Assembly (NCBI GenBank): GCA_028703545.1
Contig: JAQVMR010000001.1
Coordinates: 1 to 35,541, forward strand
Reading direction: 5' to 3'
Length of the DNA stretch: 35,541 nucleotides
Source of the DNA: Patescibacteria group bacterium
GTDB taxonomy: Bacteria; Patescibacteriota; Patescibacteriia; UBA1558; S5-K13
The notes under the pieces were generated by a model. The model did not search any database. It was not told where the DNA came from and saw only the letters and a program-made list of their open reading frames with translations. Position numbers and translations under genes: made by a program. Positions 5,645 to 31,684 of the stretch are shown here, one piece after another. The first letter of the stretch is position 1. Each line of letters opens with the position of its first letter.

Positions 5645-6433
5645 ATGACTTCAAATAATGAAAAAGATTTTTCTTTGGGAAATTCTATTAATAAAAATAA
5701 ATTTTTTAATAGAGTTTTTAATTATTTTTCAAGAGAAGATGTTATAGTAAAATCCATATTTATAGTTGGGATTTTTTCTATTTTTTTTGGAATACTGGGA
5801 ATGTATATAAACATTAAAAATTCTTTGATAACACCTGAAGTTGCTATAGAAAACACAGCGGTTATAGTAGAAGGTTTAAATAGAATAAAAGATACTGATT
5901 TGGATGGATTACCAGACTATGAAGAATTAAATACATATAACACTAGTCCATATTTAGAAGACACAGATTTAGATGGAGTGTCTGACTATGATGAGATGAT
6001 TTTGGGAAGAGACGGAGAATGCAGTGGGGATAATTGTAAAATAATTACAGCACCGGAAGAAGAATTAGACGTCATGAGTTTATTAGGTGGATTAGATTTT
6101 CAGGATGTGGATTTTCAAACATTTAAGCAAACATTAATTGAATCAGGCTATGATGAAGCAACTTTTGATTCTCTAACAGAAGAAGATTTTAATCAAATGA
6201 AACAAATGCTTCCCTCGGAAGAATCAGGCGATGTAAATTTTTCAAATCAAACAGAATTAACAAAAGAGGAGCTTCAACAAATTGAACAAATGAGAAATAT
6301 ATCAATCCAGGATATTAAGAGTCTAATGATACAAGGCGGGGCAACAGAAGAAAAATTATCAGAATTTTCAGACGATGATTTAAAACAAATATATTTACAA
6401 ACACTTGATGAATTATCAAGTTCACAATATTAA
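5645..6433 (+). CDS. Single-pass membrane protein with two TSP3-type Ca-binding repeats and an acidic C-terminal region
   Basis: One N-terminal TM helix (SIFIVGIFSIFFGILGMYINI). Two D-x-D-x-D-G-x-x-D-x-x-E units (DTDLDGLPDYEE, DTDLDGVSDYDE). The remainder is rich in D/E/Q. Its TAA stop lies 4 nt before the giant gene's ATG. Confidence 0.7.
   Translation: MTSNNEKDFSLGNSINKNKFFNRVFNYFSREDVIVKSIFIVGIFSIFFGILGMYINIKNSLITPEVAIENTAVIVEGLNRIKDTDLDGLPDYEELNTYNTSPYLEDTDLDGVSDYDEMILGRDGECSGDNCKIITAPEEELDVMSLLGGLDFQDVDFQTFKQTLIESGYDEATFDSLTEEDFNQMKQMLPSEESGDVNFSNQTELTKEELQQIEQMRNISIQDIKSLMIQGGATEEKLSEFSDDDLKQIYLQTLDELSSSQY
5891..5995 (+). repeat. Two TSP3-type calcium-binding repeats (protein level)
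   Basis: DTDLDGLPDYEE and DTDLDGVSDYDE lie 23 residues apart. Both fit D-x-D-x-D-G-x-x-D-x-x-E. Confidence 0.75.
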
Positions 6434-6437
6434 AAAA

Positions 6438-9400
6438 ATGATAAATAAGAAATCAAAATTTATTTTAATTATTGTAACAACAATATTTGTTTTTAATACT
6501 ATCCTTGTTGTTCCAAGGAAAGTAGAAGCTCAAACCACAGACTACGCCCATATAGCAGTTACGCTTGGTAAGTGGGCATGGGAAAAGGTGGAGCGTGTGG
6601 CGACAAAGTTTTATGATTCATTGGTGACAGTAACATTTAAAAGGGTTATAGGGAATTTTTTAAATAATTTAGCATATGAGGCGGCCACCAGTTTAGCTTA
6701 TGGTGCCCCAGGAGAAAAAAAGAAGTTTTTTACAAAGGGTTTTGATGAATTTCTTGAAAATGAAGCTGATGCAGCCGTGGGAGAAGTTTTAATAGCATTC
6801 GGTGAAAGTTTGGAAATAAAGGGTTTTGATATTTGTAATCCAACGGATCCAAATTTTGCGATTGATTTAGTAACAGATCAGTTTAAAATTAGATCAGGCC
6901 AAAAAATTCAAGCAAGATGTAAATTAAGTGAAATGTCAAAGAAATGGGGAGAAATAGCGCAGAAATATATCGATAATCCTTTAGCATTATTTTCTTTAAA
7001 CGGGCAATCTCTTGCCGAATTGGGTTTTACAGAGGGTGGTAATAAAAACGAACAAATGGCAAAAGTTTTAGAAAATCTTTTAGATCCAAAACAGTCAGAT
7101 GCTGCCGTTGAAATATCGATCCGTGATCAAATACAACAAACAGAAAAAGCCTCTAATGAAAAATCAAAAGATACTATAGCGACCGCGAGAGAAACTGGGG
7201 GAGTATTGCCCAGTACAGACGCACCAACTGAAAGAAAACTCGAACCATCAAAGCAGGCAGAAGAAGACCTGAAAACAAATATCGGCGCTGATAAAAAACA
7301 AAGTCCATTACTAACCTATACAGGAAATCTAGTGGCTGATACAGCAGGAGTATTTATGGATACATATATGGCCGCCTCACTTAAGAATTTAATAATGGAG
7401 TTGTATAGAAAAGCACTAAATGAAAACGAGAGTTATAGCCCGGAACTTAATCAACTTATTGCTAAAAAACCATTTTCTTTCAAGGATTACATAGATCAAG
7501 TTTATTCTTCTGTAAAAAAAATATCTTTTAATATGAACGCAACAGATATTGAGTTAATAAGTGAAATGCAAATGACAATGAGAGATCCTAATTTAGGAAT
7601 TCCGGGTAATCTAAATGATTCTGTTATTGATTCTGATTTTGCAGAAGTTTTAAGAAGGGCTCAACTTCAAGATCCTATGACACTGAGGCAAGCCATAGAA
7701 GAGAATTTAATAAATGGAAATAAAATATTTGGATTTAAAGATTTAAATAATACTCAAATTCTTCAACAGCCAGATTTAAGTGAGGGAATTTCATATGATA
7801 ATATGAAAAAATTGAGAAAAAATAGAGTAATCCCAGTTGGTTGGGAATTGGCGGCTCTTAAGATAGCTCAATTAGCAAAAAATGGAACACTAATATGTCA
7901 ACCCGGTGGATGCACATTAAATGATGTAATGAGTCAGTATAATCAATATGGTAATTATAAATACGGAGAAGTGGTTAATGATGAAGTGCAGTGGAAAACA
8001 GCCCCGGATAACTTATGTGGTTGGAGATCTTATCCTCAACTTAATCTTACACAGGCACAATGCAACAAAGATTATTTAAGAGGAGCCCCACATTATTTAG
8101 ATGATATAGAAGTAAAATGGGTTGGAGATAGTGTTAGTAATGAAAGAACGGGTATCTGTTATAAGTATAGTTTTGATAACAACGGATTTCTATCTGAAAT
8201 AACAGAGGAATCTTCAATAGTAAGTGAAGATGATTGTGATATAGTAAATTCTAACTGGTATTATGAATGGATGGATGGTGGATGTCTTATAATAGAAAGT
8301 GGAGAAGCTCCACTTTGTGGACTTATTAATCCAGACTGGGTATTAAAAGCACCAGTACAAAAATGTTTTGCAAAAGGATATTACAGCGCACTTGAAATGA
8401 ATGAAAGTTCAAATAGGTATCAGGATTGTGCTGACACAAGACAGTGTCTTAAGGAAGATGATGGTGGAAGATGTATAGGGGGATATGGATATTGCTTGAA
8501 GGAGAAGAATATTTGGAAATTTAAAGGAGATGTGTGTGACAAAAACTATAATGGATGTGTAAGCATAACCGATGATGAAAATAAACAGCAAGCATATTTA
8601 ATTAATACATTAAGAGATTGTCCCCAAGAACAATCTGGATGTAGAAAATATTTATCTACAAAGATAAAATCAGACACTTCTTATGTTTGGGATTTAAATA
8701 TAGAAAATTTTTTCTTTAATAGAAATATTACATCTTGTAATAAGTTAAAAGAAGGTTGTAATAATTTTATTAATATAGAAAGGGGGGTTAATTTAATTCC
8801 AAATTCTAGTTTTGAAATAGACGAAGGTAGGGAAGATTTAATTCCAGATGGATGGAGTGTTACTGGTTTTAAATTATCTTCGGCTTCAGCTCTTTTAGGA
8901 AGGTATTCTCTAACTCTAGATAATGGATTGTCAGATAATACAAATATAACCGATTCATTAACAGAAGATTTAGGAGACGATAGTGGGATATCTAATGCAG
9001 ATACTGGCAAAATAAGTGGAAATGAAAGAGATGGTCGTGGAATAAATACAGGAAAAGAAGATCTAAGAAGTAATGGTGAAACATCTAATTCAGATAATGG
9101 CACAGTAAATGGAAATGAAATAGGTGGTGGTGGAATAAATACAGGTGATTTGTCTATGAATATTAAAATACCAGGAATGGGTAATTATGTTTTAAGTTAT
9201 CATGTAAAAAATATTAGCGGAAATAGTGTTGTAGTTCCTTATATAAATGATATGTCACTTGATGATGCAAAATTTGAAGAATCTGAAGCTACGGATTGGA
9301 TTAGAAAATACGCTACATATACAGTATTAGATAATTCTACCGAGGAGCTTTCATTATCAATTAACGGAAGAGGAAGTTTTTATTTAGACGATATTCAATT

Positions 9401-12400
9401 TGAATTTATAGATCAATCGATTTCTGAACCCATTGATTCATTGGGTCGAACATCTTCCAGTAGATCAAATTTAATTCCAAGTCCATACAATGAATACGGT
9501 AATACATCAAATGTTTTCTTTAAAAAAGCACCCGATTATTATAATTGTAAGAGCCTTAATCCAGCTCCTGAATGTGATAATTATTCTAAGTATTGTTCAA
9601 AAGAAGATAATGGTTGTGAACTATATAGACCCGTAAATGGGGATGCTTCGGTAAGTGCTATAGTTACGCAAAATGATGTTTGTCCATCTGAGTGTAATAA
9701 ATTTCAATCATATTCACAGCTACCAAATTATTTTGATAAGTTAGAGGCCCAAGATGCTAATGAAAATATTCCAGATCCTATTACAAGAAATTTTATAGCA
9801 GATACAGCACAAAATTGTCTTGAACCATCTTGTGAGGAGTTTACAAATATAGATAGCACTAGTCAGGGCGGAGAAGGAAGAGAATATTATAATTTTTTAA
9901 GGCAGTGCGTAACGCCCAATGATGTTAATAATGAAATAAGTATATATTATACATGGGAGGGATCTGATACAGCTGGATTTCAATTAAAAACATGGAAATT
10001 ATTAGAGAGCAACTTATCAGACGGTAATATAGCAGGAAGAAATGCTCCATGTACTAATATTGCAATAGGTGGTTTTGAGTGTTCTGATTTGTCGAGTGGG
10101 AGATCCTGTGATCCAGAAAATGATTTAGATTGTAGAAGTTTCTATGATATGAATTCAATATCATATAATAGAAAATTATCAAAAACAATTCCAATTACAG
10201 ATGAATGTATAAGATTAAGAAGAACATTAAGTAATGTCGTTTACAAGGTGGTTCCATCTATGAGTCAAAGGTGTTCAGAGTCAAATGTTGGATGTATTGA
10301 ATATAAAGGAAATAATGGAAATAATATAAGAAATGTTTTGATAGAAAATTTTGAATACGGCACATCAAACCCCTGGAATTTTTCTAATGGATTAAGCTTT
10401 CACCCATCTTCAGAATCATTACAGTATGGAGGTTCCTCATTGGCTGTTTATACGTTTGGGGGGGCGACACAATTTACACTATCATATAATTTAACAGAAA
10501 ATGGATTCAATATTATTCCAGGAAGAGAATATACTCTAAGTTTTTGGGTAAAGAAATTTAGTGACAATGATACATACGGAGAAGATAGTGATTTAATAGA
10601 AGATTCCGAACAACAGGCAATAAATTTTGAAAATTTAATTTTTAATAAAGCAAGGGCACAGGAAAATTCAAATTTGACATTTACGTCTTCTGTCGTTGAA
10701 AATCCAGAATGGGAACTCAGGCAATTAAATATTATTGTAGCACCAACTACTATAACAGAAGAAGATGAAGTTTTATTGATTATAAATATCCCAATAGTAA
10801 ATTCATCTGACTTGAGAGATGGAATATTTATAGACAATATAACACTGAAAGAATTTCAAAATAATTTTTATAAAATAAGAGATTCATGGAATACTCCACG
10901 TGTTTGCGTTGATAATGATAATAATGGAATTATTGATAATAAATATTTAGGTTGTCAGGAATATAAGGACAGGAAAAAATCATCAAATTATTTATATCAG
11001 TTTAGTAATATTTGTAATCCAGAAAATGTAGGATGTCGTGCTGTTATTGACACAAAGAATTCCAAGATGCCATTCAAACAAGTTTTTAATGCTTATTGTA
11101 ATAATACAGGAAGTGCAAGTAATCCAGAATGCACAAAGAATAAATATTATTATTTAAATAATAGAGAAGAGCCAATTTCAGGAAATGATTCAGATAGCAT
11201 GATAAAGGTTCCTGAAGATACAATAGAATATATTGTAGAGGACAATAAATTTCAATGTACTAATTCTGAAAAAGGATGTCAGAATTTAGCTATATTAGAC
11301 AATAGCGGAAATCCAAGCGATGTGTTTATGGTAAATAATCCAGATGATTATATATCAGATGACTATTTTGGTGCTCAAAACCAGACTCTATGTTTATCCA
11401 AGTATAATAATTGTGTGTCTATGGAAAAGTTGGATGGTAGTTATTTATTTAAAATTCATCCAAGGGAGAACTTGTGTGAATATAGAAAAGCAGAAATTGG
11501 TTTGGGATTACCAGCTGGTTTTTATAAGAAAGGAACGAATGAAGCATGTGATGGCCTATTATATAACAAGGGTTATGATGAATCTATGAATAATATAGAA
11601 AATACATTGAATGATCATTCTATATTCCCAGAGTTTACTAATTCTTACGCAGCAGTGTGTCCTCAGGCACAGGATTCTTGTACCGCATTTATAGACCCAC
11701 AGGATAATTTAAATCAGATACCACAAACTTTAAATTTTTATAACACAGAAAATAATAATACCCCCAATTGGAAATTATTTGATTTAAACATAAACGGAAC
11801 AATCGCACCTGTGCAAGGTAATGTTTCTGCCACATCTTCAGGAATTGAGTTTGCTGCCAATTCAGGAGAATTAGCAAGGAATAGTTACAATTTTTCTGTA
11901 GAACAAAAACAAATTTATAAATTAGCTGGATTTGTTAAATTTGATGCATCTTCAGAAAATAAAAATAGATTTATTTCAACACATTTAATTTGTAAAAAGA
12001 ATAAAAACTCAGATGAATATTATTACTCTGTTGCTGAAAATAAATTACCATACGCATTTCCAGATTTAAATTCAAATTATTTTGTAAAGGAAAACGCTGG
12101 TAATGTCGATAAATGGATTTATATATATGGACTCTATACAATAGAGCCAGGTGCAAATTTTTGTAATGTTGCATTCTATTACGGCGGAAATGATGGAAAT
12201 ATATCAATTATAAATATGTCATTTGAAAAATTACAAGGATATTATACATATATTGATAATCAAAATATTGATAGAACAACTTGTATAGAACCAAGCAAAG
12301 AAAAGGGGTGTGTTTTATTTCATCAAGTTACAGATCCAACCCTAAGATGGAGTTCAGATATAAGTTATGATAATTCTAGTTTAGTAATGGGAAATTTGTA

Positions 12401-15400
12401 TTCTGTTGCAGACTCTAATGTGCTCTTGAAGGTTACAAAAGATAGAACTTGTGGAGAATGGGCGACTTGTGGTTCATCTATTAAAACAGTTGATGAAAAA
12501 ACAGGACAAGAAAAAAATTCTTGTATATCTCTTATTGGATGCGACTCCCTCTCTGCAGACAATTCTCAGTGTGATAATTTTATTTTAAGAGATGACAGCG
12601 TAAAACCACTTACATTTGATGATTATCAGAGACAAATGGGTATTGATTTATCATGGTCAGAAATGGATTATAGTGGATATTCTGTGCCAGGACTTTATCC
12701 TCTTGATAGTTTGTCGATATTTCCGACCAACACAACAACAAAGGAATATGAATTGGGGAGATCCGTAATTAAGAGAAATGTATCTGGACAAAATTTAGTT
12801 TATAAGTTTGGCTTGGGAGTTGATCCAGTTGAATCTTATTATAATGCATATAAATACCTAGATAGTCAATATAAAACATGTAGATTGTATCCAGAAAAAG
12901 ATTCACCATTTGTATGGACTCCTAGCATAGTTTTGGAATCTACTGCAACGACAGTTGGTGGAGTTTCTTATTCAATTCCTACATCCTTGAATCAAAGATT
13001 TCAAAATGCGAATATATGTCAACCAAAGTTTAACACTGAGGATCCGCCTTTGATAGATTGGTCACTGGGATTAAATAATGATTGTGATTGTAATTATACA
13101 AAAGTTACATACGGTTCTTCAAAAAATCTATATTTTCCTTATGGATATAGTAATATACCAGCAAATATTACAGAAGAATACTCTGCAACAACCATATCAA
13201 ATAAGAAATCACAAACAAATTTTATAGGATGGCGAGGATTCTGCTTAGAAAGAGATGATTCATTTTTGGCAACACCTCCTAACACAATCAGTGGAAATGG
13301 TGATAGATATAAAACAAGATGTTTATCTTGGTATCCTGTTGATTCTATAAGTGGTGAGATTGATTTATATTCTGTAGCACCAGAATCTAAAATATCTATG
13401 CCATCTGACTCTAAAGTGTGTTTAGTTGCAGATGATTATGTAACGGAAGAAGATAGAGTATACTGTGCCTTTTGGAGTTCAAATGAGAGCGAATCTAAAG
13501 CTGGTTTGTATGGCACTCAAGGGTCAGGTCATGGTTATAATGCTTTTGACCCTCAATTGTCAAGATGCAATGTATTGGCCTATGTGCCAGCAGGGACAAA
13601 ATTGTCACAAAATTCAGAAGAAGATTTTTATAACTACTTTACAAATCCAGATAATTATTGGACTCAGGATGAATTTAATGATAAATTTGTAACACAAACA
13701 CTAACAAATAACCAAGATAAAAGTTATGATATTATATATGGGGTTAATTGGCCAAGCTGGTATGAAAACAATGTTTATTATGCTGGTTTTCACTGTAATC
13801 TTTATTCAGAAGGGGGGCACTATTGGAGAGAGAAGGAGCTAAAATTTAATCCTATAGAATTTATGGAAGTTGAAAATCCTGAGGGCGACCTCACATTGGC
13901 ATTGGAGAGAGATTTCATGGAAGATTTTAAAAATAAATTATTGCCCAAGTTTCCAATTAATCAGCCTATTGATTTTTATTACTATGATGAGGGCGTGAAA
14001 CCTTCTGGTGAAAGCTATGTAGGAACTGACGGTCATGGTGTTTATGAATGGGATGACCTTAATTCCGGTTATAGGGCTAATCTATTCAGTACAGATGATA
14101 AACGAAATGTATTTATTCCACTCAGTAAGAAAGGTTATGGCTTCGACGATGACAATACTCAAGCATGTAGTAGTGCCCAAACTGTTGGAGATGCTTATAG
14201 AGAAGCCTGTGATGCAGCTAATACTCATTTTGGTGATGAATTTAACCCTTCTTTACCATATCCAAAAGGACATGAGGTTTATACAGATTGTGTCAGTGGT
14301 GGAGATTCTGAATCAATGTGGAATCCACTTAGACACAATTATTATGTTCATTATGACGGAACTAATAAGCATACCTACAGTCAAGGATGGCCTATTGGGC
14401 CTCAAAGCGTAGATGATTATGCAGGAAATATGTCATCTTGTCCTTCTGGTGATTGTGCGTCCAGCTATGATGATTTTCAAAGTATTAAAGCTTGTAGGGC
14501 TACTGGACTTATCAGTGATTCAAGTGATTCTGGATTTGATAATGTTATATTTCATTCGGATAATTATTATATAAATTATATACTGAAGTTTGGTGATGTT
14601 GGCACAACAACAGATTCAATATGTACAATACAAAATAATAATATTTGTTCTTCTATAGAAGTTGGGAAATCGAATTTATTCTCATATGATACTCTTATTT
14701 TAAGAGTTAAAGACGTAGCACAAGAAAATACTAATTTTAATGTCAATAATCATATAGGCACAGAGTTTGGTTTGTCGTCTGGTGTGAGTAGTTTAAGAGA
14801 TCCTATACATTCTAATTCTGATAATTTTAAGAATTATTATTATACATACTCTACTGATATTAAAAATTCACTAACAGGAGCTAGGAATAATTTAAGTAAT
14901 TCAATAGTAAAAATTGCAAATATAGAGCATTATCAATATGCAGTCAATGCGTGGGAGGAGGGTAATTGGGTCACATCTTCATATATTTGGGATTTAAGAG
15001 AAAATTCAGAAAACAATGCTCCAATTATCAAGCAAGTAAATAAAGATGGAGAGGGAGCCAGGGGAATAACAGTTAATAACAGTAATTCTGCGGATATATA
15101 TGCCGTGAAAAGTCTAAAAGTTAATTTGAGTTTTTACGCTTACGCTCGGTGGGGCAGATCTCCAATAAAAGAAATAAAATTGGATTGGTATGGCGACGAC
15201 TCCGATACATTAACACTTCCAGGACCATTTAAAAATAAAAGAGCAGAATGTATAAGAAAGTGTGCGGATAAATATAGTTCAATTTCAATACAAGATTGGA
15301 ACAATGGTGATTATTGTAATTCTGATTCTGATTGTACAGGCGGGCAAAAATGTTTTTCCTATGGTTGGGGTAATGATCAAAATTCTTGTGTTGAAGACGA

Positions 15401-15665
15401 ATTTAATTATTCATTTGTATATGTTTGCACCCCAGATAGCGACTATTGGATTGATAGTTGTGAAATAGCGGGTGATGAACCATGTTGTATATTTAATCCA
15501 GCAGTTATAATTACTGACTCTTGGGGAAATTCCTCTGAATCGGGAATGTCTGATGAAAAATCAATTATAATAACAACAAATCAAGGAATTTTGAATATTA
15601 GAAATCGACAACAAAACATAGAAGAAGACGAAGAAGACGAAGAAGACGATGTAACATTTAGATGA
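6438..15665 (+). CDS. Giant secreted Cys-rich multidomain protein (3,075 aa from the preferred start), function unknown
   Basis: Longest ORF in the window (track: 6405..15665). I prefer the ATG at 6438, 4 nt after the upstream TAA, because it gives a classical signal peptide MINKKSKFILIIVTTIFVFNTILVVPRKVEA/QTT. The first ~450 mature residues are Cys-poor. About 88 Cys (hand count) then lie mainly in spacers between three Cys-poor CBM4_9-like beta-sandwich modules. The tail is acidic (EEDEEDEEDD). There is no TM anchor or LPXTG motif. Confidence 0.85.
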   Translation: MINKKSKFILIIVTTIFVFNTILVVPRKVEAQTTDYAHIAVTLGKWAWEKVERVATKFYDSLVTVTFKRVIGNFLNNLAYEAATSLAYGAPGEKKKFFTKGFDEFLENEADAAVGEVLIAFGESLEIKGFDICNPTDPNFAIDLVTDQFKIRSGQKIQARCKLSEMSKKWGEIAQKYIDNPLALFSLNGQSLAELGFTEGGNKNEQMAKVLENLLDPKQSDAAVEISIRDQIQQTEKASNEKSKDTIATARETGGVLPSTDAPTERKLEPSKQAEEDLKTNIGADKKQSPLLTYTGNLVADTAGVFMDTYMAASLKNLIMELYRKALNENESYSPELNQLIAKKPFSFKDYIDQVYSSVKKISFNMNATDIELISEMQMTMRDPNLGIPGNLNDSVIDSDFAEVLRRAQLQDPMTLRQAIEENLINGNKIFGFKDLNNTQILQQPDLSEGISYDNMKKLRKNRVIPVGWELAALKIAQLAKNGTLICQPGGCTLNDVMSQYNQYGNYKYGEVVNDEVQWKTAPDNLCGWRSYPQLNLTQAQCNKDYLRGAPHYLDDIEVKWVGDSVSNERTGICYKYSFDNNGFLSEITEESSIVSEDDCDIVNSNWYYEWMDGGCLIIESGEAPLCGLINPDWVLKAPVQKCFAKGYYSALEMNESSNRYQDCADTRQCLKEDDGGRCIGGYGYCLKEKNIWKFKGDVCDKNYNGCVSITDDENKQQAYLINTLRDCPQEQSGCRKYLSTKIKSDTSYVWDLNIENFFFNRNITSCNKLKEGCNNFINIERGVNLIPNSSFEIDEGREDLIPDGWSVTGFKLSSASALLGRYSLTLDNGLSDNTNITDSLTEDLGDDSGISNADTGKISGNERDGRGINTGKEDLRSNGETSNSDNGTVNGNEIGGGGINTGDLSMNIKIPGMGNYVLSYHVKNISGNSVVVPYINDMSLDDAKFEESEATDWIRKYATYTVLDNSTEELSLSINGRGSFYLDDIQFEFIDQSISEPIDSLGRTSSSRSNLIPSPYNEYGNTSNVFFKKAPDYYNCKSLNPAPECDNYSKYCSKEDNGCELYRPVNGDASVSAIVTQNDVCPSECNKFQSYSQLPNYFDKLEAQDANENIPDPITRNFIADTAQNCLEPSCEEFTNIDSTSQGGEGREYYNFLRQCVTPNDVNNEISIYYTWEGSDTAGFQLKTWKLLESNLSDGNIAGRNAPCTNIAIGGFECSDLSSGRSCDPENDLDCRSFYDMNSISYNRKLSKTIPITDECIRLRRTLSNVVYKVVPSMSQRCSESNVGCIEYKGNNGNNIRNVLIENFEYGTSNPWNFSNGLSFHPSSESLQYGGSSLAVYTFGGATQFTLSYNLTENGFNIIPGREYTLSFWVKKFSDNDTYGEDSDLIEDSEQQAINFENLIFNKARAQENSNLTFTSSVVENPEWELRQLNIIVAPTTITEEDEVLLIINIPIVNSSDLRDGIFIDNITLKEFQNNFYKIRDSWNTPRVCVDNDNNGIIDNKYLGCQEYKDRKKSSNYLYQFSNICNPENVGCRAVIDTKNSKMPFKQVFNAYCNNTGSASNPECTKNKYYYLNNREEPISGNDSDSMIKVPEDTIEYIVEDNKFQCTNSEKGCQNLAILDNSGNPSDVFMVNNPDDYISDDYFGAQNQTLCLSKYNNCVSMEKLDGSYLFKIHPRENLCEYRKAEIGLGLPAGFYKKGTNEACDGLLYNKGYDESMNNIENTLNDHSIFPEFTNSYAAVCPQAQDSCTAFIDPQDNLNQIPQTLNFYNTENNNTPNWKLFDLNINGTIAPVQGNVSATSSGIEFAANSGELARNSYNFSVEQKQIYKLAGFVKFDASSENKNRFISTHLICKKNKNSDEYYYSVAENKLPYAFPDLNSNYFVKENAGNVDKWIYIYGLYTIEPGANFCNVAFYYGGNDGNISIINMSFEKLQGYYTYIDNQNIDRTTCIEPSKEKGCVLFHQVTDPTLRWSSDISYDNSSLVMGNLYSVADSNVLLKVTKDRTCGEWATCGSSIKTVDEKTGQEKNSCISLIGCDSLSADNSQCDNFILRDDSVKPLTFDDYQRQMGIDLSWSEMDYSGYSVPGLYPLDSLSIFPTNTTTKEYELGRSVIKRNVSGQNLVYKFGLGVDPVESYYNAYKYLDSQYKTCRLYPEKDSPFVWTPSIVLESTATTVGGVSYSIPTSLNQRFQNANICQPKFNTEDPPLIDWSLGLNNDCDCNYTKVTYGSSKNLYFPYGYSNIPANITEEYSATTISNKKSQTNFIGWRGFCLERDDSFLATPPNTISGNGDRYKTRCLSWYPVDSISGEIDLYSVAPESKISMPSDSKVCLVADDYVTEEDRVYCAFWSSNESESKAGLYGTQGSGHGYNAFDPQLSRCNVLAYVPAGTKLSQNSEEDFYNYFTNPDNYWTQDEFNDKFVTQTLTNNQDKSYDIIYGVNWPSWYENNVYYAGFHCNLYSEGGHYWREKELKFNPIEFMEVENPEGDLTLALERDFMEDFKNKLLPKFPINQPIDFYYYDEGVKPSGESYVGTDGHGVYEWDDLNSGYRANLFSTDDKRNVFIPLSKKGYGFDDDNTQACSSAQTVGDAYREACDAANTHFGDEFNPSLPYPKGHEVYTDCVSGGDSESMWNPLRHNYYVHYDGTNKHTYSQGWPIGPQSVDDYAGNMSSCPSGDCASSYDDFQSIKACRATGLISDSSDSGFDNVIFHSDNYYINYILKFGDVGTTTDSICTIQNNNICSSIEVGKSNLFSYDTLILRVKDVAQENTNFNVNNHIGTEFGLSSGVSSLRDPIHSNSDNFKNYYYTYSTDIKNSLTGARNNLSNSIVKIANIEHYQYAVNAWEEGNWVTSSYIWDLRENSENNAPIIKQVNKDGEGARGITVNNSNSADIYAVKSLKVNLSFYAYARWGRSPIKEIKLDWYGDDSDTLTLPGPFKNKRAECIRKCADKYSSISIQDWNNGDYCNSDSDCTGGQKCFSYGWGNDQNSCVEDEFNYSFVYVCTPDSDYWIDSCEIAGDEPCCIFNPAVIITDSWGNSSESGMSDEKSIIITTNQGILNIRNRQQNIEEDEEDEEDDVTFR
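9006..9146 (+). repeat. 93-nt-period direct repeat inside a G/N/D/S-rich insert of the giant gene
   Basis: ggaaatgaaagagatggtcgtggaataaatacagga (9018-9053) and ggaaatgaaataggtggtggtggaataaatacaggt (9111-9146) are offset by 93 nt. They encode GNERDGRGINTG and GNEIGGGGINTG. Confidence 0.8.
15621..15647 (+). repeat. Perfect (GAAGAAGAC)x3 microsatellite encoding EEDEEDEED, ending six codons before the giant gene's stop
   Basis: Read directly: gaagaagac gaagaagac gaagaagac, followed by gat gta aca ttt aga tga. Confidence 0.95.
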
Positions 15666-15702: not shown

Positions 15703-18700
15703 ATGATAAATAGAGATAATAAAATATATAAAACATTGAGAAGTATAATACAAAAATTTAAAAATTTTGAAAATTCTTTAACAAGAAAAAGAAAAATTTT
15801 TTACGCTATTTCTTTATTTTTTATTTGTATATTTTTTTGTTTCCCGGGGGCAACAGCGAGGGCGACATTAATGGATGCAATTCTTAATCTACTTACAAAT
15901 TTATTTTTGACTATACTTAGTTTTTTGGGTTGGATTGCTACTAAACTTATGATAGCTTTAGTTTTTTTTGCAACATGGGGTAAATACACAACAGGCATAC
16001 ATGCAGTTGTTGAAGGATGGAAAATTGCAAGAGATATATGTAATATGTTTTTTATATTTATACTTCTTATAATCTCATTTGCTACTATAATAGGCATAGA
16101 ATCATATTCATATAAAAAATGGCTAGGGAAGGTTGTAATATTTTCAATTCTAATAAATTTTTCTAAAATGATCACAGGTCTTTTAATAGATGTTTCTCAG
16201 ATAGTGATGTTAACATTTGTGAGTGGATTTAAAGATGCAACTGTGGGTAATTTTGCAAAGGGCCTTCATTTAGACCAGTTGATGAAAAAGGAAGCAGGCA
16301 CAAGTTCAGAAGAAAAGAATAGCAGCACAAGTGTTTTTGTAACAGTGGTGTTAGCTTGTATAATGTTGGTAGTTTTAAATGTCATATTGGTTATTATGAT
16401 AGTTATGCTTGTGGGAAGAATTTTGAGTTTTTGGATTTTGGCAATTTTATCTCCTTTTGCATTTTTACTTCAAGCATCTCCTGCGGGGGGTAAATATGCA
16501 AATGAGTGGTGGCAGTCTCTTTCAAAAAATCTTATTAGTGGTCCAATACTTGCAATGTTTATTTATTTGACAATGGCAACAATTCAAAATTCTGTTGATG
16601 CAGACCATAATAAAGTTGAGAATTTATCTGAAATTGGTGGAGTTTTAGACAAAGATGAAGAAAATATGGGTACTAGTGGGGCAACAGTTGGGCAGTATTC
16701 TTTAGAGAAGACCAGTATGATTTTAGATTTTATTATTGTTATTGCTATGATGATTGCAGCCATAAGGATAGCGGGATCGCTTGGAGTAATGGGTTCAAGT
16801 TTTGCTGGTAATATGTCAAATAAATTACAGAAAGCTGGTTCTTCAGCCCTTAAACTTGGTATGGCGGGGGTCGGTGCTGCTACAGGAGCAAATTATTTAG
16901 CGAAAAGATATAGGGCATATAAAGAAATTAGAAAAGATAGAAAAGATCAAAAAGCATATCAAGATGCACAGAAATTTATGGATAGAACTGGAAAAATGAA
17001 GCAGGGCGTTGGTAAATTTATGCAAAATCCACTAAAATCTTTGTCCAGTGACAGAAATAAAGTAGGAAGATTTTTTAAAGGAGCTGAACAAAAAAGACAG
17101 AATGTTGCAAAATGGGCTAGTGGTACTTGGGCTGGAAGACGTGCTCATGATTTAAATTTTGCCCAAAAGGCTAGAGAAAGAGCAGAAAAATCAGCAAATG
17201 CGGCTTCTCATCTTTCTTATGCTAGGAGCATGGGAGTTCGCAATACCCAAGATATAGATAATTTGGAAAATGGTTTAGATACTCGAAGAACCAACATAGA
17301 TAGAGATGAAGCACATTTTATAGAAGAATATAGAAATAGTCATCCAGGGGCCAATATAACAGATATAGATCAGATAGATAAGGGTACATTAAATGAGGAT
17401 CAAAGAGTGCAGCTTGATAATTTGAATAATAATAGAAAAAAAATAGAAACAGAACAGGGACACATAGATGGACTTAGAGATTTGGTTGGAGGTTTAGATG
17501 TGCAAGAGGCGGAATTTATAAATAATTATCGAAATAATAATCCTACTTCTACTGCAACAGATTTAAGTGAAATAGATAGAAGAACCCTGACTGATCAAGA
17601 AAGAAATAAACTTTATAGTTTAATGAATCAAAGAACAAGATATGATCAATCAGGAGAGAATAAAAATTTAGAAACTTTAGATGATTTATATAAAAGACAT
17701 AATATAAAGAATGAACAGAAGAATAGTTTAGATAGGCAAGAGGCGGAATTTATAAATAATTATAGAAATAATAATCCGGGCGTTAGAATAACATCTTTGG
17801 GTGACATAGATAGAACTACTTTGAATGATCAACAGAGAACTGAACTTGCTAAATTGGAAAAACAAAGAAATAAGTTGGGAGAAGTTGGACCGGCTATAAA
17901 TAATTATGAAGATGTTTTAGCAAATACAAGAATTTTAGATGAAACTATAAATCATTTTCAGGAAAAATCAGAGAAATCATCAAGAGCTGCTCAGGGTTGG
18001 ACAGAATTTGGAACTGGTGCCGCAGCTGTATTTAGAAGATCCCTTTTGGCAACATCATTTTTAGCTCCATTTGCTTCTGCTCTTGGGGGGTCATTTTTTG
18101 CTCCACTAGCTAATTTATATGGAATTCATACAGCAACAGGCGGTGTATATGGTGCATTGGCATCTTCTGGTGCAAGCTGGTCAATGGCTGCTGCAGCTGC
18201 ACCTGGCTTAACGAGTGATGCAGGTAAGGCACTTGAGCGAAGTGGTCAGGCAGATGTAAGGGATGCTGCAAATTATTTAAGTAATAAAGTTATGGATGCT
18301 GCAAAAAAATTTGAGGATATGGATACAGGAATGGTAGAACGCATGAGAGATGATATAAAAACTTCTAATGTGGATTATATGGCAGCTCAATTCCAATTAT
18401 TAAAAAGAGGTCTTGTGGGTGTAGATCAAATACCACAGCTTTTATCTGATTTACAAAATCGTGGTGCTGATAGAAATACACTGAGATCATTTGAAGGAGA
18501 AATAAGAAAACAATTCCCAACGGAAGGTAGATGGTTAGATGCACAAGGAAGGCCATTATTAGACGGAGACAGAGGAAGTAGACAGGCAGAACAGATGAGA
18601 CTCAATGGAGTGGGAAGAGTATTAGAGGGTATAAATGCAACGGGATATACACAAGAAATAATAAGAAATGCCATTAGAGAATCAAGAACGCCCGCTGAAC

Positions 18701-19224
18701 TTAGAGCGGATGCAAATCGTTTGTCAATAGAGCAACAAAGGGGTGTTGCTCAAGTTTCTCATAGAATTTTAATAGAGGATAGTGCTGGTATGAATACAGA
18801 GGATTTGAATAAACTAGCTCAATTTTTATCTACATCCCTGAGCTCTAATGTAAATAGAGAAGAGAGACAAACAATGTCTCGTGAGGCCTATAATGAATTA
18901 ATAGGAAGAGATGATATAGCACAGATAAATACAGCAGATTTATTGGTAAATATGGATTTAAATGATGCGGGGTTAGATCAGAGACAGCTTTTGGCAAATA
19001 TTAATCCAGTAGAAATTGGAAATATGGTTAGAACAGCAAATGATTTAGGTGGAGATAGAAAAACCATGGTTAATGATTGGTTGGGACAAATTAGGCCATT
19101 ATTAGATCAAATGCTTACCGGTAATCAACTAGAACAACAGAATGCTCAACGTATCATAGCAAGATTAGGCCAAATGCAGGGAGCGGCCGCTTTAAATACC
19201 ATGAATAATCTTGATTTATATTAG
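15703..19224 (+). CDS. Large polytopic membrane protein (1,173 aa), with a core possibly related to TrbL/VirB6-type channel proteins
   Basis: N-terminal signal/anchor, then at least 7 hydrophobic spans within residues ~30-365. A basic, coiled-coil-like region follows and contains three tandem repeats. A second Gly/Ala-rich hydrophobic patch is present (GAAAVFRRSLLATSFLAPFASALGGSFFAPLANLYG...AAAAAPGL). The ~340-aa tail is rich in Arg, Ala and Gln. The TrbL/VirB6 resemblance of the segment WKIARDICNMFFIFILLIISFATII...ILINFS is from memory and unverified. Confidence 0.75.
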   Translation: MINRDNKIYKTLRSIIQKFKNFENSLTRKRKIFYAISLFFICIFFCFPGATARATLMDAILNLLTNLFLTILSFLGWIATKLMIALVFFATWGKYTTGIHAVVEGWKIARDICNMFFIFILLIISFATIIGIESYSYKKWLGKVVIFSILINFSKMITGLLIDVSQIVMLTFVSGFKDATVGNFAKGLHLDQLMKKEAGTSSEEKNSSTSVFVTVVLACIMLVVLNVILVIMIVMLVGRILSFWILAILSPFAFLLQASPAGGKYANEWWQSLSKNLISGPILAMFIYLTMATIQNSVDADHNKVENLSEIGGVLDKDEENMGTSGATVGQYSLEKTSMILDFIIVIAMMIAAIRIAGSLGVMGSSFAGNMSNKLQKAGSSALKLGMAGVGAATGANYLAKRYRAYKEIRKDRKDQKAYQDAQKFMDRTGKMKQGVGKFMQNPLKSLSSDRNKVGRFFKGAEQKRQNVAKWASGTWAGRRAHDLNFAQKARERAEKSANAASHLSYARSMGVRNTQDIDNLENGLDTRRTNIDRDEAHFIEEYRNSHPGANITDIDQIDKGTLNEDQRVQLDNLNNNRKKIETEQGHIDGLRDLVGGLDVQEAEFINNYRNNNPTSTATDLSEIDRRTLTDQERNKLYSLMNQRTRYDQSGENKNLETLDDLYKRHNIKNEQKNSLDRQEAEFINNYRNNNPGVRITSLGDIDRTTLNDQQRTELAKLEKQRNKLGEVGPAINNYEDVLANTRILDETINHFQEKSEKSSRAAQGWTEFGTGAAAVFRRSLLATSFLAPFASALGGSFFAPLANLYGIHTATGGVYGALASSGASWSMAAAAAPGLTSDAGKALERSGQADVRDAANYLSNKVMDAAKKFEDMDTGMVERMRDDIKTSNVDYMAAQFQLLKRGLVGVDQIPQLLSDLQNRGADRNTLRSFEGEIRKQFPTEGRWLDAQGRPLLDGDRGSRQAEQMRLNGVGRVLEGINATGYTQEIIRNAIRESRTPAELRADANRLSIEQQRGVAQVSHRILIEDSAGMNTEDLNKLAQFLSTSLSSNVNREERQTMSREAYNELIGRDDIAQINTADLLVNMDLNDAGLDQRQLLANINPVEIGNMVRTANDLGGDRKTMVNDWLGQIRPLLDQMLTGNQLEQQNAQRIIARLGQMQGAAALNTMNNLDLY
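17302..17880 (+). repeat. Three tandem protein repeats (periods of 66 and 78 codons) in the 1,173-aa membrane protein
   Basis: The three units are RDEAHFIEEYRNSHPGANITDIDQIDKGTLNEDQRVQLDNL, VQEAEFINNYRNNNPTSTATDLSEIDRRTLTDQERNKLYSL and RQEAEFINNYRNNNPGVRITSLGDIDRTTLNDQQRTELAKL. Units 2 and 3 share a near-identical DNA block, caagaggcggaatttataaataattat, at 17503 and 17737 (234 nt apart). Confidence 0.9.
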
Positions 19225-19389: not shown

Positions 19390-21210
19390 ATGCAAGAATT
19401 AAAACAAAATCAAAAAATTATAGAATCTATTTTAAGTAAGTTTAATTTAGGTTTAAATTTATATCATTTATTAGAGAGTATTCTGGATGGATATTTTTCT
19501 GATATTTTTGATTTTAATTTTACTATTGAAGATTTAATTAAAAATATAAAACTAGACAAACAAAAGGCGGTTGAACTTTTATTATACTCAGGTGCATTGC
19601 TTTCAGACACACTAGAAGATAAGAAATTAGAAGAATTAAATAAATTTGCAAAAGAAAATGGTTTTGATTTTGAAAAATTATTTGAGGATTCAATTAGCAG
19701 TCTTATTGATACAAGTATCGATGATTTTATAGATTATTCTTTATTAGACGATAATATTGACTCGACCTTAAAAATATTTCAGTACCATCTAATTTTAGCC
19801 ATACAAGAACAAAATAGTTTTGAATTATCAAGATTAGACACAATGATAATGACTCAATTAATGTTTGATCCAGATGTAAAAGACAAAATTCTAGAAGCAC
19901 TATCAAAAAACCAATATATTATTCAAGATAAAAAAATATCTGACTGGATAAAAGAGTTTGAAAGTATAATAAAAAAAGATTATAGGTCAAGCTTTATAGC
20001 AAAAAATAATTTTATCGATAATCAAAACTTAAATATAAAATATAAAAATTTATTGTCAAAGATTTTAGTTATGTATTTAAGGATAAAATTTTCTCCAAAA
20101 AGTTTTGATGATATTACAGAAACGGATTATTTTATAATTCCATATATTAAAGTTTTGTCAGGACAAATTGAAATTACAAACGAAAAAATTGTAAATATAT
20201 TAAAAGATAATTTATATAATTTGATAAATAGCGAAACAGGGATCGATCATGAAATTTTAAATGCTTTTATAGTTTCTGATATGGATAATGATGTTTTCAG
20301 AAGAGGAATTGAAGATGCATTATATAAAAATAGTGAACAAATAACAGACACAAAAATAAAATTAGAAGAAGCTGAAGTTATTGGCACAACAGCTAATTGG
20401 ATAAAAGATTATATAGAAAAAAATGGAATTGATAAATATGATGACATTGCATTTTCAACCTATATACTGGATTCAGAAAATACAAAAAATTTAAAAGAAG
20501 ATGAAAGAGAAATAGTAAAAAGATTATTGCAATTTTATTTGAATATGAAATTTTACTCACAGATTTTTGTTGGGATTGAGAGAGAAAAATGGACCATATA
20601 TCCTATAGAATTAAAGGAGGGAGTAAAAATAAAGAAGGTTTTTGTTCCAGAGTCGGTTGAAGAACGTATTCAAAAAATTCCAGAGAAAAAAGCTTCTAAC
20701 ATAGACACACTTTTAAATGCTTACAAAAATTTTGAATTAAGCTTTAAAAATTTAGAAACTCAAGTTACTAAAGACCTTAAATTAAAAAAAAGTACTGATT
20801 TAGATGAAGAATTTTTGAATTTTATAAATACAAATAAAGTAAAAGAAGCAATGGTTGTTTTGTCTTATGTGTGTAGTAATAATTTGATAAATATATTCTT
20901 TAAAGATAATAAAATTTTACAAAGAGATTTTAAGAAATTTTTAGAAAATAAATTTTCAGAAGATATGATAAATAATATTATAGGATTTTTTGGTACAGTT
21001 GAGTCAGTTAGTTTGTTCTTACAATTTTTATTAACAGAAAAATTGAGATTAATACCAAAAGATTCGGCGATTTTCGGAATGTATTTAGCTAACATATTTA
21101 AGAAATCAAAACAAGAAAAATATTTTCCCATTGTTTATGGTGATGTAAATTCTACTATGTTTATTTTTAGAGAAATAAAAGATGTTGCAGGAAAATTAGT
21201 AATAAAATAG
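19390..21210 (+). CDS. Hypothetical soluble protein (606 aa), last gene of the cassette
   Basis: Long uninterrupted ORF with no hydrophobic spans, no P-loop and no motif I recognise. The composition, rich in K/E/D/N/I/L, suggests a helical protein. A hairpin plus T-run follows the stop. Confidence 0.7.
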   Translation: MQELKQNQKIIESILSKFNLGLNLYHLLESILDGYFSDIFDFNFTIEDLIKNIKLDKQKAVELLLYSGALLSDTLEDKKLEELNKFAKENGFDFEKLFEDSISSLIDTSIDDFIDYSLLDDNIDSTLKIFQYHLILAIQEQNSFELSRLDTMIMTQLMFDPDVKDKILEALSKNQYIIQDKKISDWIKEFESIIKKDYRSSFIAKNNFIDNQNLNIKYKNLLSKILVMYLRIKFSPKSFDDITETDYFIIPYIKVLSGQIEITNEKIVNILKDNLYNLINSETGIDHEILNAFIVSDMDNDVFRRGIEDALYKNSEQITDTKIKLEEAEVIGTTANWIKDYIEKNGIDKYDDIAFSTYILDSENTKNLKEDEREIVKRLLQFYLNMKFYSQIFVGIEREKWTIYPIELKEGVKIKKVFVPESVEERIQKIPEKKASNIDTLLNAYKNFELSFKNLETQVTKDLKLKKSTDLDEEFLNFINTNKVKEAMVVLSYVCSNNLINIFFKDNKILQRDFKKFLENKFSEDMINNIIGFFGTVESVSLFLQFLLTEKLRLIPKDSAIFGMYLANIFKKSKQEKYFPIVYGDVNSTMFIFREIKDVAGKLVIK

Positions 21211-21282: not shown

Positions 21283-21804
21283 ATGTTAAAAATTAGTAGA
21301 AACTTTTATCCAGAAGTATTTTATCATATTTATAATAGAGGTGTTGATAAGAGAAAGATATTTTATTGTAGAAGGGATTATTTATTTTTTATAAATAGAA
21401 TTAATTTTTATAGGCGAGTAACAGGGGTTATTATTGTAAGTTATTGTTTGTTACCAAATCATTATCATTTTATTTTGCGTGAACCACCCCACCCAATGGG
21501 TGGTCTTCCACCCATTGGGTGGGGATATAAAACAAATGTAAATCCATTTTCAAATTTTAAAATTCCTAAATTTATGGGTCTTCTAGCCAATTCATATACA
21601 AAATATTTTAATAATAAAAAAGGACGATCTGGAAGATTATTTGAATTTGTTTTTAAGTCTAGAGAAATTAATAAAGAAAATCAATTAAGCAATGTTGTTA
21701 ATTATATTATTTTCAATCCGCTAAAGCATGGATTGGTAAATAATCAGAAAGATTGGAAATATACATTTGTTGATGATAAAAAAATAACCAATGTTTTGCA
21801 TTAG
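21283..21804 (+). CDS. IS200/IS605-type Y1 HUH transposase-like protein (REP-associated tyrosine transposase, RAYT-like)
   Basis: HUH motif in LLPNHYHFIL. The C-terminal catalytic-Tyr helix NYIIFNPLKHGLV matches the Y-I-x-x-N-P-x-x-x-G-L-V pattern of RAYT-like proteins. RSGRLFEFVFKS matches the conserved G-x-L-[FW]-Q-x-R-[FY] strand. The ORF is intact despite an in-frame palindromic insert at 21487-21524. Confidence 0.7.
   Translation: MLKISRNFYPEVFYHIYNRGVDKRKIFYCRRDYLFFINRINFYRRVTGVIIVSYCLLPNHYHFILREPPHPMGGLPPIGWGYKTNVNPFSNFKIPKFMGLLANSYTKYFNNKKGRSGRLFEFVFKSREINKENQLSNVVNYIIFNPLKHGLVNNQKDWKYTFVDDKKITNVLH
21487..21524. repeat. Perfect 17-bp G+C-rich inverted repeat with a 4-nt loop, in frame inside the RAYT-like gene
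   Basis: CCCCACCCAATGGGTGG tctt CCACCCATTGGGTGGGG. The right arm is the exact reverse complement of the left. 12 of 17 arm positions are G/C, in otherwise A+T-rich DNA. It encodes PHPMGGLPPIGWG. Confidence 0.95.
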
Positions 21805-30484: not shown

Positions 30485-31684
30485 TTATTTTATTGTAATT
30501 TTTGTTCCTATATCTGCCCAGGAGTAGAGTGCTTCCATATCTGTATATGAGACATTTACACATCCGTGACTCATTTTTTTCCCAAAATTATTGTGCCAAT
30601 AAGCACCGTGAATATAGAATCTGTATTTTTGAGTTGTAAAATGTAGATTCCATTTTGTATTTGGATAATAAAAATTGTAACCACTTCCACCGTATTGCTT
30701 TGATGGAATTTTATCTAAAACTTTAAAGTTTCCAAGGGGCGTGTCCATTCCTCTTATTCCGCTTGATATTAAAAAAGAATCAAGTAGTTTTTCTCCCGAA
30801 TAATATTCAAGTTTTTGTGTTTTTATATCAATCTTTATTATTTTTTCTTGTTTTTTGTTTGATTCTGAGCTTGGATCATAATTATTTTTTACCTCATCTC
30901 CGTCTTTATGGCCATCTCCATCTGTATCAGGATTTTTTAAATCGCTTTTATAGGCGATTTCAAAAAAATTATTTAATCCATCATTATCAGTATCAACTTC
31001 AAGAAGTTTTATATTTTTATCTATTGGTGAGAGATTTTTATTTATTTCATCTCCATCACTAATTTTATCTCCATCAGTGTCTTTATTATCATAATCAGTG
31101 TAATAAAAATGTTCTTCGTCATAATCAAATAATCCATCCCCATCAGAATCATAATTTTTTATAAGGGGAATGCTAAATTTTGAAAAATGTCTCAATGAAT
31201 CATCTTTATTATTTATAATTTGACCATTTTTGTAATTAGATAAATCCATTTCGACAAAATAATCAAAATCAAAACTATTTGTAAGAAATGAATCTGCATT
31301 CAAAAATGGCCTTTTGAAACCATTTTCTATATAATAGAACCCATTGCTATTAATATTTTTTACAATTGTTCCCGTTGTTAAATTATCTATTTGTTTTTCA
31401 TACTTGCCAGATTTATATCTAACCATGCCACCAAACTCAAATGAATTAATTATATTTTTATCTACAGTTTTTACATAATCAAATTTATCAAACCAACTTA
31501 AATAGGTTTTTGAATCTAAAAAATTATATTTTTTATTGTCTGCTCCTATATAAAAAACAGCTCTATCCTCTGATGTTAAAAGTGTACCCCTATAATCTTC
31601 TTGAGCAAGACAGGGTTTAATTGAAAATAAAAAAATTATTATGATAAAAATATTTGAGATGTATTTGATTAGATTTATTGGCAT
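30485..31684 (-). CDS. L,D-transpeptidase (YkuD domain) with four TSP3-type Ca-binding repeats
   Basis: C-terminal YkuD catalytic block IHGAYWHNNFGKKMSHGCVNV. The central repeats are DSDGDGLFDYDE, DTDGDKISDGDE, DTDNDGLNNFFE and DTDGDGHKDGDE. I prefer the ATG at 31684, which gives the signal peptide MPINLIKYISNIFIIIIFLFSIKPCLAQ (track start 31765). Confidence 0.85.
   Translation of the reverse strand: MPINLIKYISNIFIIIIFLFSIKPCLAQEDYRGTLLTSEDRAVFYIGADNKKYNFLDSKTYLSWFDKFDYVKTVDKNIINSFEFGGMVRYKSGKYEKQIDNLTTGTIVKNINSNGFYYIENGFKRPFLNADSFLTNSFDFDYFVEMDLSNYKNGQIINNKDDSLRHFSKFSIPLIKNYDSDGDGLFDYDEEHFYYTDYDNKDTDGDKISDGDEINKNLSPIDKNIKLLEVDTDNDGLNNFFEIAYKSDLKNPDTDGDGHKDGDEVKNNYDPSSESNKKQEKIIKIDIKTQKLEYYSGEKLLDSFLISSGIRGMDTPLGNFKVLDKIPSKQYGGSGYNFYYPNTKWNLHFTTQKYRFYIHGAYWHNNFGKKMSHGCVNVSYTDMEALYSWADIGTKITIK
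30893..31150 (-). repeat. Four TSP3-type calcium-binding repeats (protein level) in the L,D-transpeptidase
   Basis: DSDGDGLFDYDE, DTDGDKISDGDE, DTDNDGLNNFFE and DTDGDGHKDGDE, read from the minus-strand translation. Confidence 0.8.

Follow-up and report, generated by a model that had tools for sequence, protein, structure and literature searches.

Type IV secretion systems (T4SS) of the Patescibacteria have been reported as chromosomal machines derived from the MPF_FATA class of mating pair formation (MPF) systems (PMC12102498). In Southlakia epibionticum, the only species tested, the system is essential, and its role has been called completely unknown (PMC12102498, PMC12857230, PMC11665869). 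VirB6 homologues were called in Patescibacteria by Quinonero-Coronel et al. (2025), numbering only 480 and present in a minority of the genomes in that survey, and no adhesin was called (PMC12102498). In this study we describe a gene encoding 1,173 amino acids (aa) at positions 15703 to 19224 (+) of a 35,541-nucleotide contig from the genome of an ultra-small Patescibacteria bacterium (JAQVMR010000001.1, the whole of which is referred to here as the window). The unannotated family to which its product belongs is very probably the VirB6-type membrane subunit of the chromosomal, conjugation-derived T4SS of the Patescibacteria, in the form found in the class ABY1.

TrwI, the VirB6 protein of R388 (PF04610; PDB 7o3v, 8rt9, 8rtd), is the best structural match of the N-terminal core of this protein. 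Both TrwI and the family are polytopic and come from gene clusters containing VirB3 and VirB4, and central helices with an 'LSP...P...KY..WW' segment were aligned in every comparison of TrwI with the family core. TrwI differs in having 342 aa and no C-terminal appendage, and in matching the TrbL family at E 5e-50 against 3e-3 for our protein; its system also differs, being a diderm MPF_T conjugation apparatus with VirB5 and VirB7-11, none of which was seen here. PrgH of pCF10, the VirB6 of a monoderm MPF_FATA system, is alike in its weak TrbL match, which covers the same span of the profile, and in lying directly upstream of prgI (VirB3) and a virB4 homologue. However, it has only 266 aa and no extension, its plasmid is conjugative and carries a relaxase, a coupling protein and the adhesin PrgB, and it gave no significant direct alignment with the family profile.

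An extended class of VirB6 proteins has also been described, in which a VirB6-like core is joined to one or more large hydrophilic central or C-proximal domains of unknown role (PMC12857230; PMC7648143). Our protein falls within this definition, with a VirB6-like core and ~790 aa after it. The architecture, with its variable, repeat-bearing extensions, is shared by TraG of the F plasmid, the VirB6 paralogues of Rickettsiales (VirB6-4 of Anaplasma among them) and the MPF_FA proteins of the TcpH/ConG type, which are of 700-900 aa; no sequence similarity was found between the extensions of the family and those of known extended VirB6 proteins, TraG and TcpH being compared by description only. The extended VirB6 proteins of other phyla belong to conjugative or effector-translocating machines, whereas close relatives in this family appear to have replaced the extension, and the gene is linked to that of a giant secreted protein.

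The published locus order in Patescibacteria is VirB6, x, VirB3, TrsD, VirB4 (PMC12102498), and the gene of this family occupies the position of VirB6 in it. The published systems and the family loci are from the same phylum and have no relaxase nearby, and the composition of the related clusters (PrgI, TraC-like/TrsD and VirB4) fits a Patescibacteria T4SS, although the window itself is without these genes. In the rows of Table S3 of PMC12102498 for two ABY1 genomes, GCA_000992375.1 and GCA_000992395.1, VirB4 and TrsD are listed but no VirB6, and so, as far as these rows go, the family appears to have escaped the profiles of the 2025 survey and to be the VirB6 component that they missed. The assignment would give a function, as the VirB6-type subunit of the ABY1-class system, to a family that lacks annotation and has members in at least 495 species-level genomes, and it defines a nine-gene cluster with four further conserved unknowns (the giant protein, a TSP3 protein, X606 and Y). 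It also shows the VirB6 appendage to be the part of the machine that evolves fast. This is an advance in annotation and architecture within a known kind of system, and it offers concrete targets for structure prediction, cryo-electron tomography and genetics.

The family and its conserved core

The open reading frame (ORF) starts with ATG and encodes 1,173 aa followed by a stop codon, and its product is 100% identical to a database entry named 'MAG: hypothetical protein PHH83_00035, Patescibacteria group bacterium' (MAG, metagenome-assembled genome). G+C makes up roughly 28% of the window, which spans a 35.5-kb contig of a Patescibacteria MAG. The features of the gene are listed below with the evidence for each, including model confidence as the predicted local distance difference test (pLDDT).

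15703..19224 (+): whole gene of the extended VirB6-like protein (ORF, translation, database identity)
15703..15861 (+): basic N-terminus (aa 1-30) and first hydrophobic helix, H0 (aa 31-53) (charge, family consensus)
15775..16842 (+): VirB6/TrbL-like membrane core, aa 25-380, which defines the family (homologue alignment, AlphaFold, Foldseek)
16129..16602 (+): segment matched by PF04610 TrbL, aa 143-300, profile positions 31-186 of 215 (Pfam)
16843..17169 (+): basic linker, aa 381-489, predicted to be disordered (pLDDT < 50 at aa 386-488)
17170..17994 (+): helical repeat region, aa 490-764 (pLDDT 84-96, all helical)
17995..18339 (+): Gly/Ala/Ser-rich low-complexity patch, weakly hydrophobic, aa 765-879 (composition, hydropathy, pLDDT < 50)
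18340..19221 (+): lineage-specific helical tail domain, aa 880-1173 (pLDDT about 70-93, helical)

The homologue set comprised 142 clusters at 90% identity, 120 of which were listed. Among these listed matches the proteins range from 763 to 1,891 aa, all are named 'hypothetical protein' with no functional annotation, and almost all come from MAGs of Patescibacteria or of unclassified bacteria; two record names, Xanthomonadaceae and Verrucomicrobiae, are inconsistent with this. When species-representative genomes were scanned, a relative turned up in at least 495 species-level genomes, mostly of the class ABY1. Named genomes with relatives include those of Falkowbacteria, Komeilibacteria, Kerfeldbacteria and Parcubacteria, all of which are placed in ABY1 by the supplement of PMC12102498. 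The title 'uncultured Gammaproteobacteria bacterium' is borne by many MAG records in which the gene and T4SS cluster are of the Patescibacteria type (loci L014, L017, L018, L024, L026 and about 30 more), and one such record is titled 'Planctomycetota'; these titles are probably mislabelled taxonomy of the deposited records.

The region common to our protein and all 120 listed homologues is limited to aa ~25-400. Its most conserved part, and that of the family, is the block GWKIARDICNMFF...MLTFV, to which the original prediction had already drawn attention. Twelve residues are invariant (W106, R110, N114, N152, F153, S154, F172, R239, S250, P251, G280 and P281). Among these the polar residues R110, N114, N152, S154 and R239 lie within hydrophobic helices, as do the nearly invariant D111, K155, D163 and Q166.

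Relationship of the core to VirB6 and TrbL

The N-terminal core of ~355 residues is a helical membrane domain, conserved across the family and distantly like TrbL/VirB6. This view, which the original prediction had put forward as a possibility, is supported by three independent lines of evidence: Pfam matches at the level of the family, the predicted fold, and gene context. When the core was scanned in isolation its top Pfam match was PF04610 TrbL (E 0.0033, 17.7 bits, aa 143-300). Across the family TrbL was matched by 12 of 88 cores, with a best E of 1.2e-6, against two cores at most for every other Pfam family, and our protein is related to the TrbL-matching members at E <= 1e-35. For calibration, TrwI matched TrbL at E 5e-50 and PrgH at 29.2 bits over profile positions 26-181, the same span as our protein. 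To judge from PrgH, in which 29.2 bits corresponds to E 9.9e-7, the best member of the family probably passes the TrbL cut-off.

Comparison of folds gave a similar picture. The four best PDB matches of the core model in Foldseek are all TrwI/VirB6 chains (8rtd_L, 8rt9_F, 7o3v_G and 7o3v_J), with probabilities of 0.97-0.99 and the next match at 0.28 or below, and TrwI/VirB6 provided five of the top seven fold matches of the full-length model (probability 0.94-0.97). Two other kinds of match were set aside. Coiled-coil PDB matches of the full-length family profile came via K/E/A-rich C-terminal columns, and PF19590, precomputed on four homologues, was dropped after it was not reproduced at E <= 10 with either full-length proteins or N-terminal cores.

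Gene context

Component hidden Markov models (HMMs) were built and scanned over 89 loci, and downstream genes were counted in the 59 loci with at least 7 kb of downstream sequence. In most relatives the VirB6-like gene lies within a co-directional cluster of nine genes. Two locus arrangements, linked by L008, together give the order TSP3 protein, giant protein, VirB6-like protein, X, Y, PrgI, TraC-like protein, VirB4 and a small bitopic protein. The run from the VirB6-like gene through X, Y, PrgI (PF12666) and the TraC-like gene to VirB4 (P-loop_TraG 1e-30, AAA_10, DUF87) is seen in L006, L007 and L008, and the PrgI of related loci scores 28 bits, above the cut-off. The VirB6-like protein is the only polytopic member of the cluster, PrgI having two transmembrane (TM) segments, the last protein being bitopic, and X and Y being soluble.

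PrgI and VirB4 lie co-directionally downstream of the VirB6-like gene in 45 of the 59 loci, and in 38 the T4SS module is contiguous. A further eight (L002, L018, L059, L063, L068, L083, L086 and L091) have the module or gene Y after 4.7-9.2 kb of unrelated genes; L002, which shows gene Y only, at the edge of the locus, is not counted among the 45. The window holds the first half of the cluster only, consisting of the VirB6-like gene and three neighbours:

5645..6433 (+): TSP3-repeat single-pass membrane protein, 262 aa (Pfam TSP3_bac, weak; same position in related loci)
6405..15665 (+): giant secreted or anchored protein, 3,086 aa (N-terminal hydrophobic signal; homologous giants in related loci)
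19390..21210 (+): ORF606 ('X606'), soluble, no signal peptide, internally duplicated (homologues in related loci)

All three have homologues in loci that contain the ATPase genes. The TSP3 protein, the conserved first gene product of the cluster, has bacterial repeats of the calcium-binding type and an acidic C-terminus, and the end of its gene overlaps the TTG start called for the giant ORF, the true start of which is probably a nearby downstream ATG (Met residue 2 or 12 of the called ORF). The giant protein is rich in N, S and D, starts with a signal or anchor and ends in a Cys-rich region, and a Pfam scan found no domain in it. Among the 59 loci whose sequence extends at least 9 kb upstream of the VirB6-like gene, 47 have a giant homologue, of 2,600-3,200 aa, on that side. 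It is a candidate surface or host-contact component, and the literature records no adhesin near Patescibacteria T4SS genes (PMC12102498). ORF606 matched nothing in Pfam or NCBIfam; in 67 of 72 loci its homologue is the next gene after the VirB6-like one. The version in the window is longer through a partial internal duplication, both aa 7-253 and aa 259-606 matching the family model. In three loci (L054 12740-14899, L066 5385-8336 and L071 12310-14148) a single Y-matching ORF of 613-984 aa lies directly after the VirB6-like gene with no separate X606. These long ORFs suggest fusions of X606 and Y, which would tie the two soluble proteins together in function. In the window the cluster is flanked by housekeeping genes (leuS, ksgA, rpsF, iPGM and RNase J), which indicates a chromosomal location.

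Several results weigh against a VirB6-type subunit of a T4SS. The core of our protein is below the Pfam gathering cut-off for TrbL (17.7 against 25.9 bits), and scans of the full-length protein against Pfam and NCBIfam gave no TrbL match at E <= 0.1, the match appearing with the core alone. The Foldseek scores are modest (E about 0.03-0.18, TM-score 0.32-0.46, root-mean-square deviation about 10 A). In hhalign comparisons the probabilities were low, at 0.5-2.7% (E 0.017-0.11), whether the partner was TrwI, PrgH or a TrwI-family profile. With two family alignments against the TrwI-family alignment, a narrow profile (>= 51% identity), the values were 2.1-2.7% and E 0.017-0.023, and the segment aligned to TrwI was consistent between the tests though not significant. 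The core profile found no match among PDB sequences, where a search with the single sequence returned noise only. Finally, PrgI, TrsD and VirB4 were not found anywhere in the window, in the 16.3 kb downstream or the 15.7 kb upstream of the gene, and 13 of the 59 loci, including the window and its closest relatives L012, L013, L001 and L016, have no T4SS module within reach. The idea of a TrbL/VirB6-like core is upheld by sequence at the level of the family, by fold and by context, and not by the individual protein's score or by alignment with the narrow TrwI profile.

It could be argued from the last of these results that in the lineage of the window the TSP3, giant, VirB6-like and ORF606 half works without a VirB4-powered T4SS, for example as a platform for export or anchoring of the giant protein or as a host-attachment device. 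The window lacks an ATPase module over 16.3 kb, as do 12 other loci, the closest relatives all among them, over 7.7-10 kb. The four genes are together and intact in these ATPase-less loci, and the giant protein has a signal sequence. However, that signal in itself suggests export by Sec, and absence from the flank is weak evidence when eight loci regain the module or gene Y after insertions of 4.7-9.2 kb and when the genes inserted in L002 also occur as a set in L005 and L009. VirB4 has moreover been reported as near-ubiquitous in Patescibacteria, ABY1 included (PMC12102498). We therefore regard an uncoupled module as unlikely, and a subunit of a VirB4-containing T4SS remains the preferred explanation.

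Architecture of the protein

The ORF and the four parts into which the original prediction divided it all exist, although some of the parts differ in character from what was described. At least seven hydrophobic spans had been expected within residues ~30-365, and hydropathy (Kyte-Doolittle) and two AlphaFold models agree on eight helices at aa 31-366, consisting of a signal-anchor-like H0 and seven more. The pLDDT is 81.7 for the membrane core and 72 for the full-length model. H0 is closed by an A-x-A-like motif (ATARA), and the family consensus likewise shows 'AxA' after H0, so that this helix may be a signal anchor or a cleavable signal peptide, cleavage being predicted from the motif.

The second part (aa 400-789), said to be basic and rich in Q and N with three repeats, is rich in R, D, K and E as well as in N and Q, has a net charge of +8, and is strongly basic in the stretch next to the membrane. 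The repeats are genuine: three cores of ~52 aa start at aa 533, 599 and 677 (nt 17299-17454, 17497-17652 and 17731-17886) and share 20-29 of 52 residues in pairs, against a maximum of 14 in 100 shuffles. They are too divergent to be registered in a search for tandem repeats in the DNA. The third part (aa 790-860) has the Gly and Ala richness that was claimed for it (25% Ala, 14% Gly, 13% Ser), but its maximum 19-residue hydropathy of 1.48 is under the usual TM threshold and its pLDDT is below 50; it is thus a weakly hydrophobic low-complexity patch with no confident TM segment. In the fourth part (aa 861-1173) the reported richness in R (9.6%), A (8.3%), Q (8.3%) and G (7.7%) holds, with L (11.5%), N and D equally prominent and a net charge of -7. 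The full-length model divides the C-terminal half into a disordered basic linker (386-488), helical repeats (490-760), a low-confidence Gly/Ala patch (765-875) and a helical tail (880-1172). In a fold search with the full-length model the C-terminal domains matched nothing more specific than generic helical repeats, at a probability of 0.5 or below.

Evolution of the C-terminal half

A C-terminal region is present in all 120 listed homologues, with a length of 306-1,498 aa (median 523) compared with ~790 aa in our protein, and in 112 of them it is without a strongly hydrophobic segment. Its sequence is far less constant than its presence. When 1.84 billion representatives were searched exhaustively with phmmer, genuine matches to the tail came from only five clusters, of ~950-1,180 aa, each with the N-terminal core or being the cluster of the query itself. 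One further candidate, P0121, had appeared to be a tail homologue without a core; it proved to be a PD40-like beta-propeller repeat protein whose score was the sum of 11 weak repeat matches.

The cores of P0002 to P0005 are 70-71% identical to that of our protein, and their tails range from 82% identical to undetectable; in P0003 the tail is 82% identical and the core 70%. C-terminal similarity is kept in only half of the pairs with 70-80% core identity, and it is missing altogether from 236 pairs whose cores are at least 65% identical. At the extreme, P0025 and P0029 have cores that are 92% identical and C-terminal regions of ~520-690 aa without detectable similarity, and the same is true of P0001 and P0005, with 70% identical cores. 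These two pairs point to replacement of the appendage between close relatives, with the reservation that their contigs are short and might be assembly chimeras. No case was found in which distant cores share a C-terminus. This, together with the mismatch between core and tail identities, indicates that the appendage is hypervariable or has been replaced within lineages, rather than imported across lineages. Unrelated C-termini on cores of 70-92% identity and a long C-terminal half in every homologue show that the two halves have evolved differently; the different origin of the tail that was offered as one explanation of its G+C is unsupported. A separate idea, that the tail or the long ORF606 might be a fusion with the 'missing' Y gene, was rejected for lack of similarity (E > 0.05); the tail likewise showed none to the cluster proteins Y, X606, PrgI, TrsD and post192 at that threshold.

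G+C content of the tail

The foreign-origin proposal had been prompted by base composition. The G/C counts first cited are exact (30 in 18121-18180 and 4 in 4801-4860), and the third and fourth parts are indeed richer in G+C than their surroundings, 600-nt windows over 18001-19200 giving 0.37-0.41 against about 0.23 just downstream. The rise is confined to codon positions 1 and 2, however, and G+C at the third position (GC3) is flat along the gene at 0.15-0.26 and matches that of the other 16 genes of the window (0.13-0.21). Expected G+C was calculated from the amino-acid sequence and the codon usage of the window, with the gene itself left out. The expected and observed profiles agree at r = 0.98; over aa 790-1173 observed G+C is 0.384 and expected 0.382, and GC3 is 0.211 against an expected 0.212. 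Even the maximum of the gene, in the Gly/Ala patch, is 0.46 both as observed and as expected from amino acids. As amino-acid sequence and native codon usage reproduce the profile, the G+C of the tail is an effect of its Ala, Gly and Arg content, with no sign of foreign DNA. Strong amino-acid constraint or composition, the other explanation originally offered, is the right one, and the profile is fully explained by it.

Acquisition of the third and fourth parts from a source of higher G+C, or from another gene, could still be entertained on grounds other than composition. The tail is absent from most members of the family, cores of equal identity carry unrelated C-termini (P0005 and our protein; P0025 and P0029), the tail of P0003 is closer to ours than its core is, and local G+C does reach 0.37-0.46. 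Against this are the GC and GC3 values, which match expectation, the failure of the exhaustive phmmer search to find the tail in any other architecture once the spurious P0121 is discounted, its lack of similarity to the other proteins of the cluster, and the fact that distant cores never share a C-terminus. Neither a donor family for aa 880-1173 outside the VirB6-like proteins nor a shift in codon usage at synonymous sites was found. A foreign or fused tail is in our view very unlikely, and turnover within lineages is preferred.

That the protein might be an unrelated membrane protein, for example a transporter or a factor that helps to assemble the giant protein, with its VirB6 likeness a by-product of hydrophobic helices, is barely credible despite the weakness of all the direct scores (Pfam below cut-off, hhalign not significant, TM-scores < 0.5), since TrbL alone recurs among the cores (12 of 88, against two at most for others), VirB6 chains top two separate fold searches with a clear gap below them, and in most genomes the gene keeps a close, co-directional linkage to VirB3, TrsD and VirB4, in clusters without another VirB6 candidate.

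Proposed mechanism and topology

If the core is a VirB6-type subunit, then by analogy with R388, in which it is a pentamer, and with VirB6 biology generally, several copies of it may assemble above the VirB4 ATPase into a central platform or protochannel close to the membrane. The conserved polar residues R110, D111, N114, N152, S154, K155, D163, Q166 and R239 could then line the conduit or the interfaces between subunits. The C-terminal ~790 residues, comprising linker, repeats, patch and tail, form an appendage of the 'extended-VirB6' kind, which is probably a specificity or adaptor module.

The side of the membrane on which this appendage lies is finely balanced, and we lean only slightly towards the cytoplasm. 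The leaning follows the positive-inside rule. The N-terminal segment has a family mean of 4.0 K+R against 0.3 D+E, and after the core the means are 5.4 and 0.8, with 92% of members net positive there. In the cytoplasm the appendage could serve as a docking site for substrates or for X606 and Y, the soluble proteins of the cluster. On the other hand, most helices of VirB6 in the R388 structure are outside the membrane, and hydropathy is a poor guide to topology (PMC12857230), so that a topology based on hydropathy may mislead. Fast turnover of the appendage also fits exposure to a host cell.

It may be speculated, although we consider it rather doubtful, that the TSP3 protein, the giant of ~3,000 aa and the VirB6-like protein with its replaceable module make up the host-contact or specificity end of the ABY1 T4SS. 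The giant would then be the 'missing adhesin' or an extracellular conduit and the appendage a cassette-like determinant, swapped or quickly remodelled to suit different hosts or substrates, and in some lineages, that of the window among them, the assembly might work uncoupled from the ATPase genes.

Other features of the window

A RAYT-like ORF (REP-associated tyrosine transposase; REP, repetitive extragenic palindrome) at 21283-21804 (+) occupies exactly the place at which most relatives have the rest of the T4SS cluster. It contains, in frame, a G+C-rich hairpin at 21487-21524 with perfect 17-nt arms (CCCCACCCAATGGGTGG / CCACCCATTGGGTGGGG), which is unique in this window of 28% G+C and falls between the two halves of the transposase domain that were matched. 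When the surroundings of the gene were searched for REP-like repeats, this one local hairpin was all that was found. Between ksgA and the cluster, at 3898-5505 (+), is a gene of 0.20-0.22 G+C for a 535-aa protein with about 11 predicted TM helices; the protein has no match in Pfam or NCBIfam and is not at that position in L005 and L009, where ksgA abuts the TSP3 gene. A YkuD L,D-transpeptidase encoded at 30485-31765 (-) carries a TSP3 repeat and cross-matches the HMM of the TSP3 protein of the cluster.

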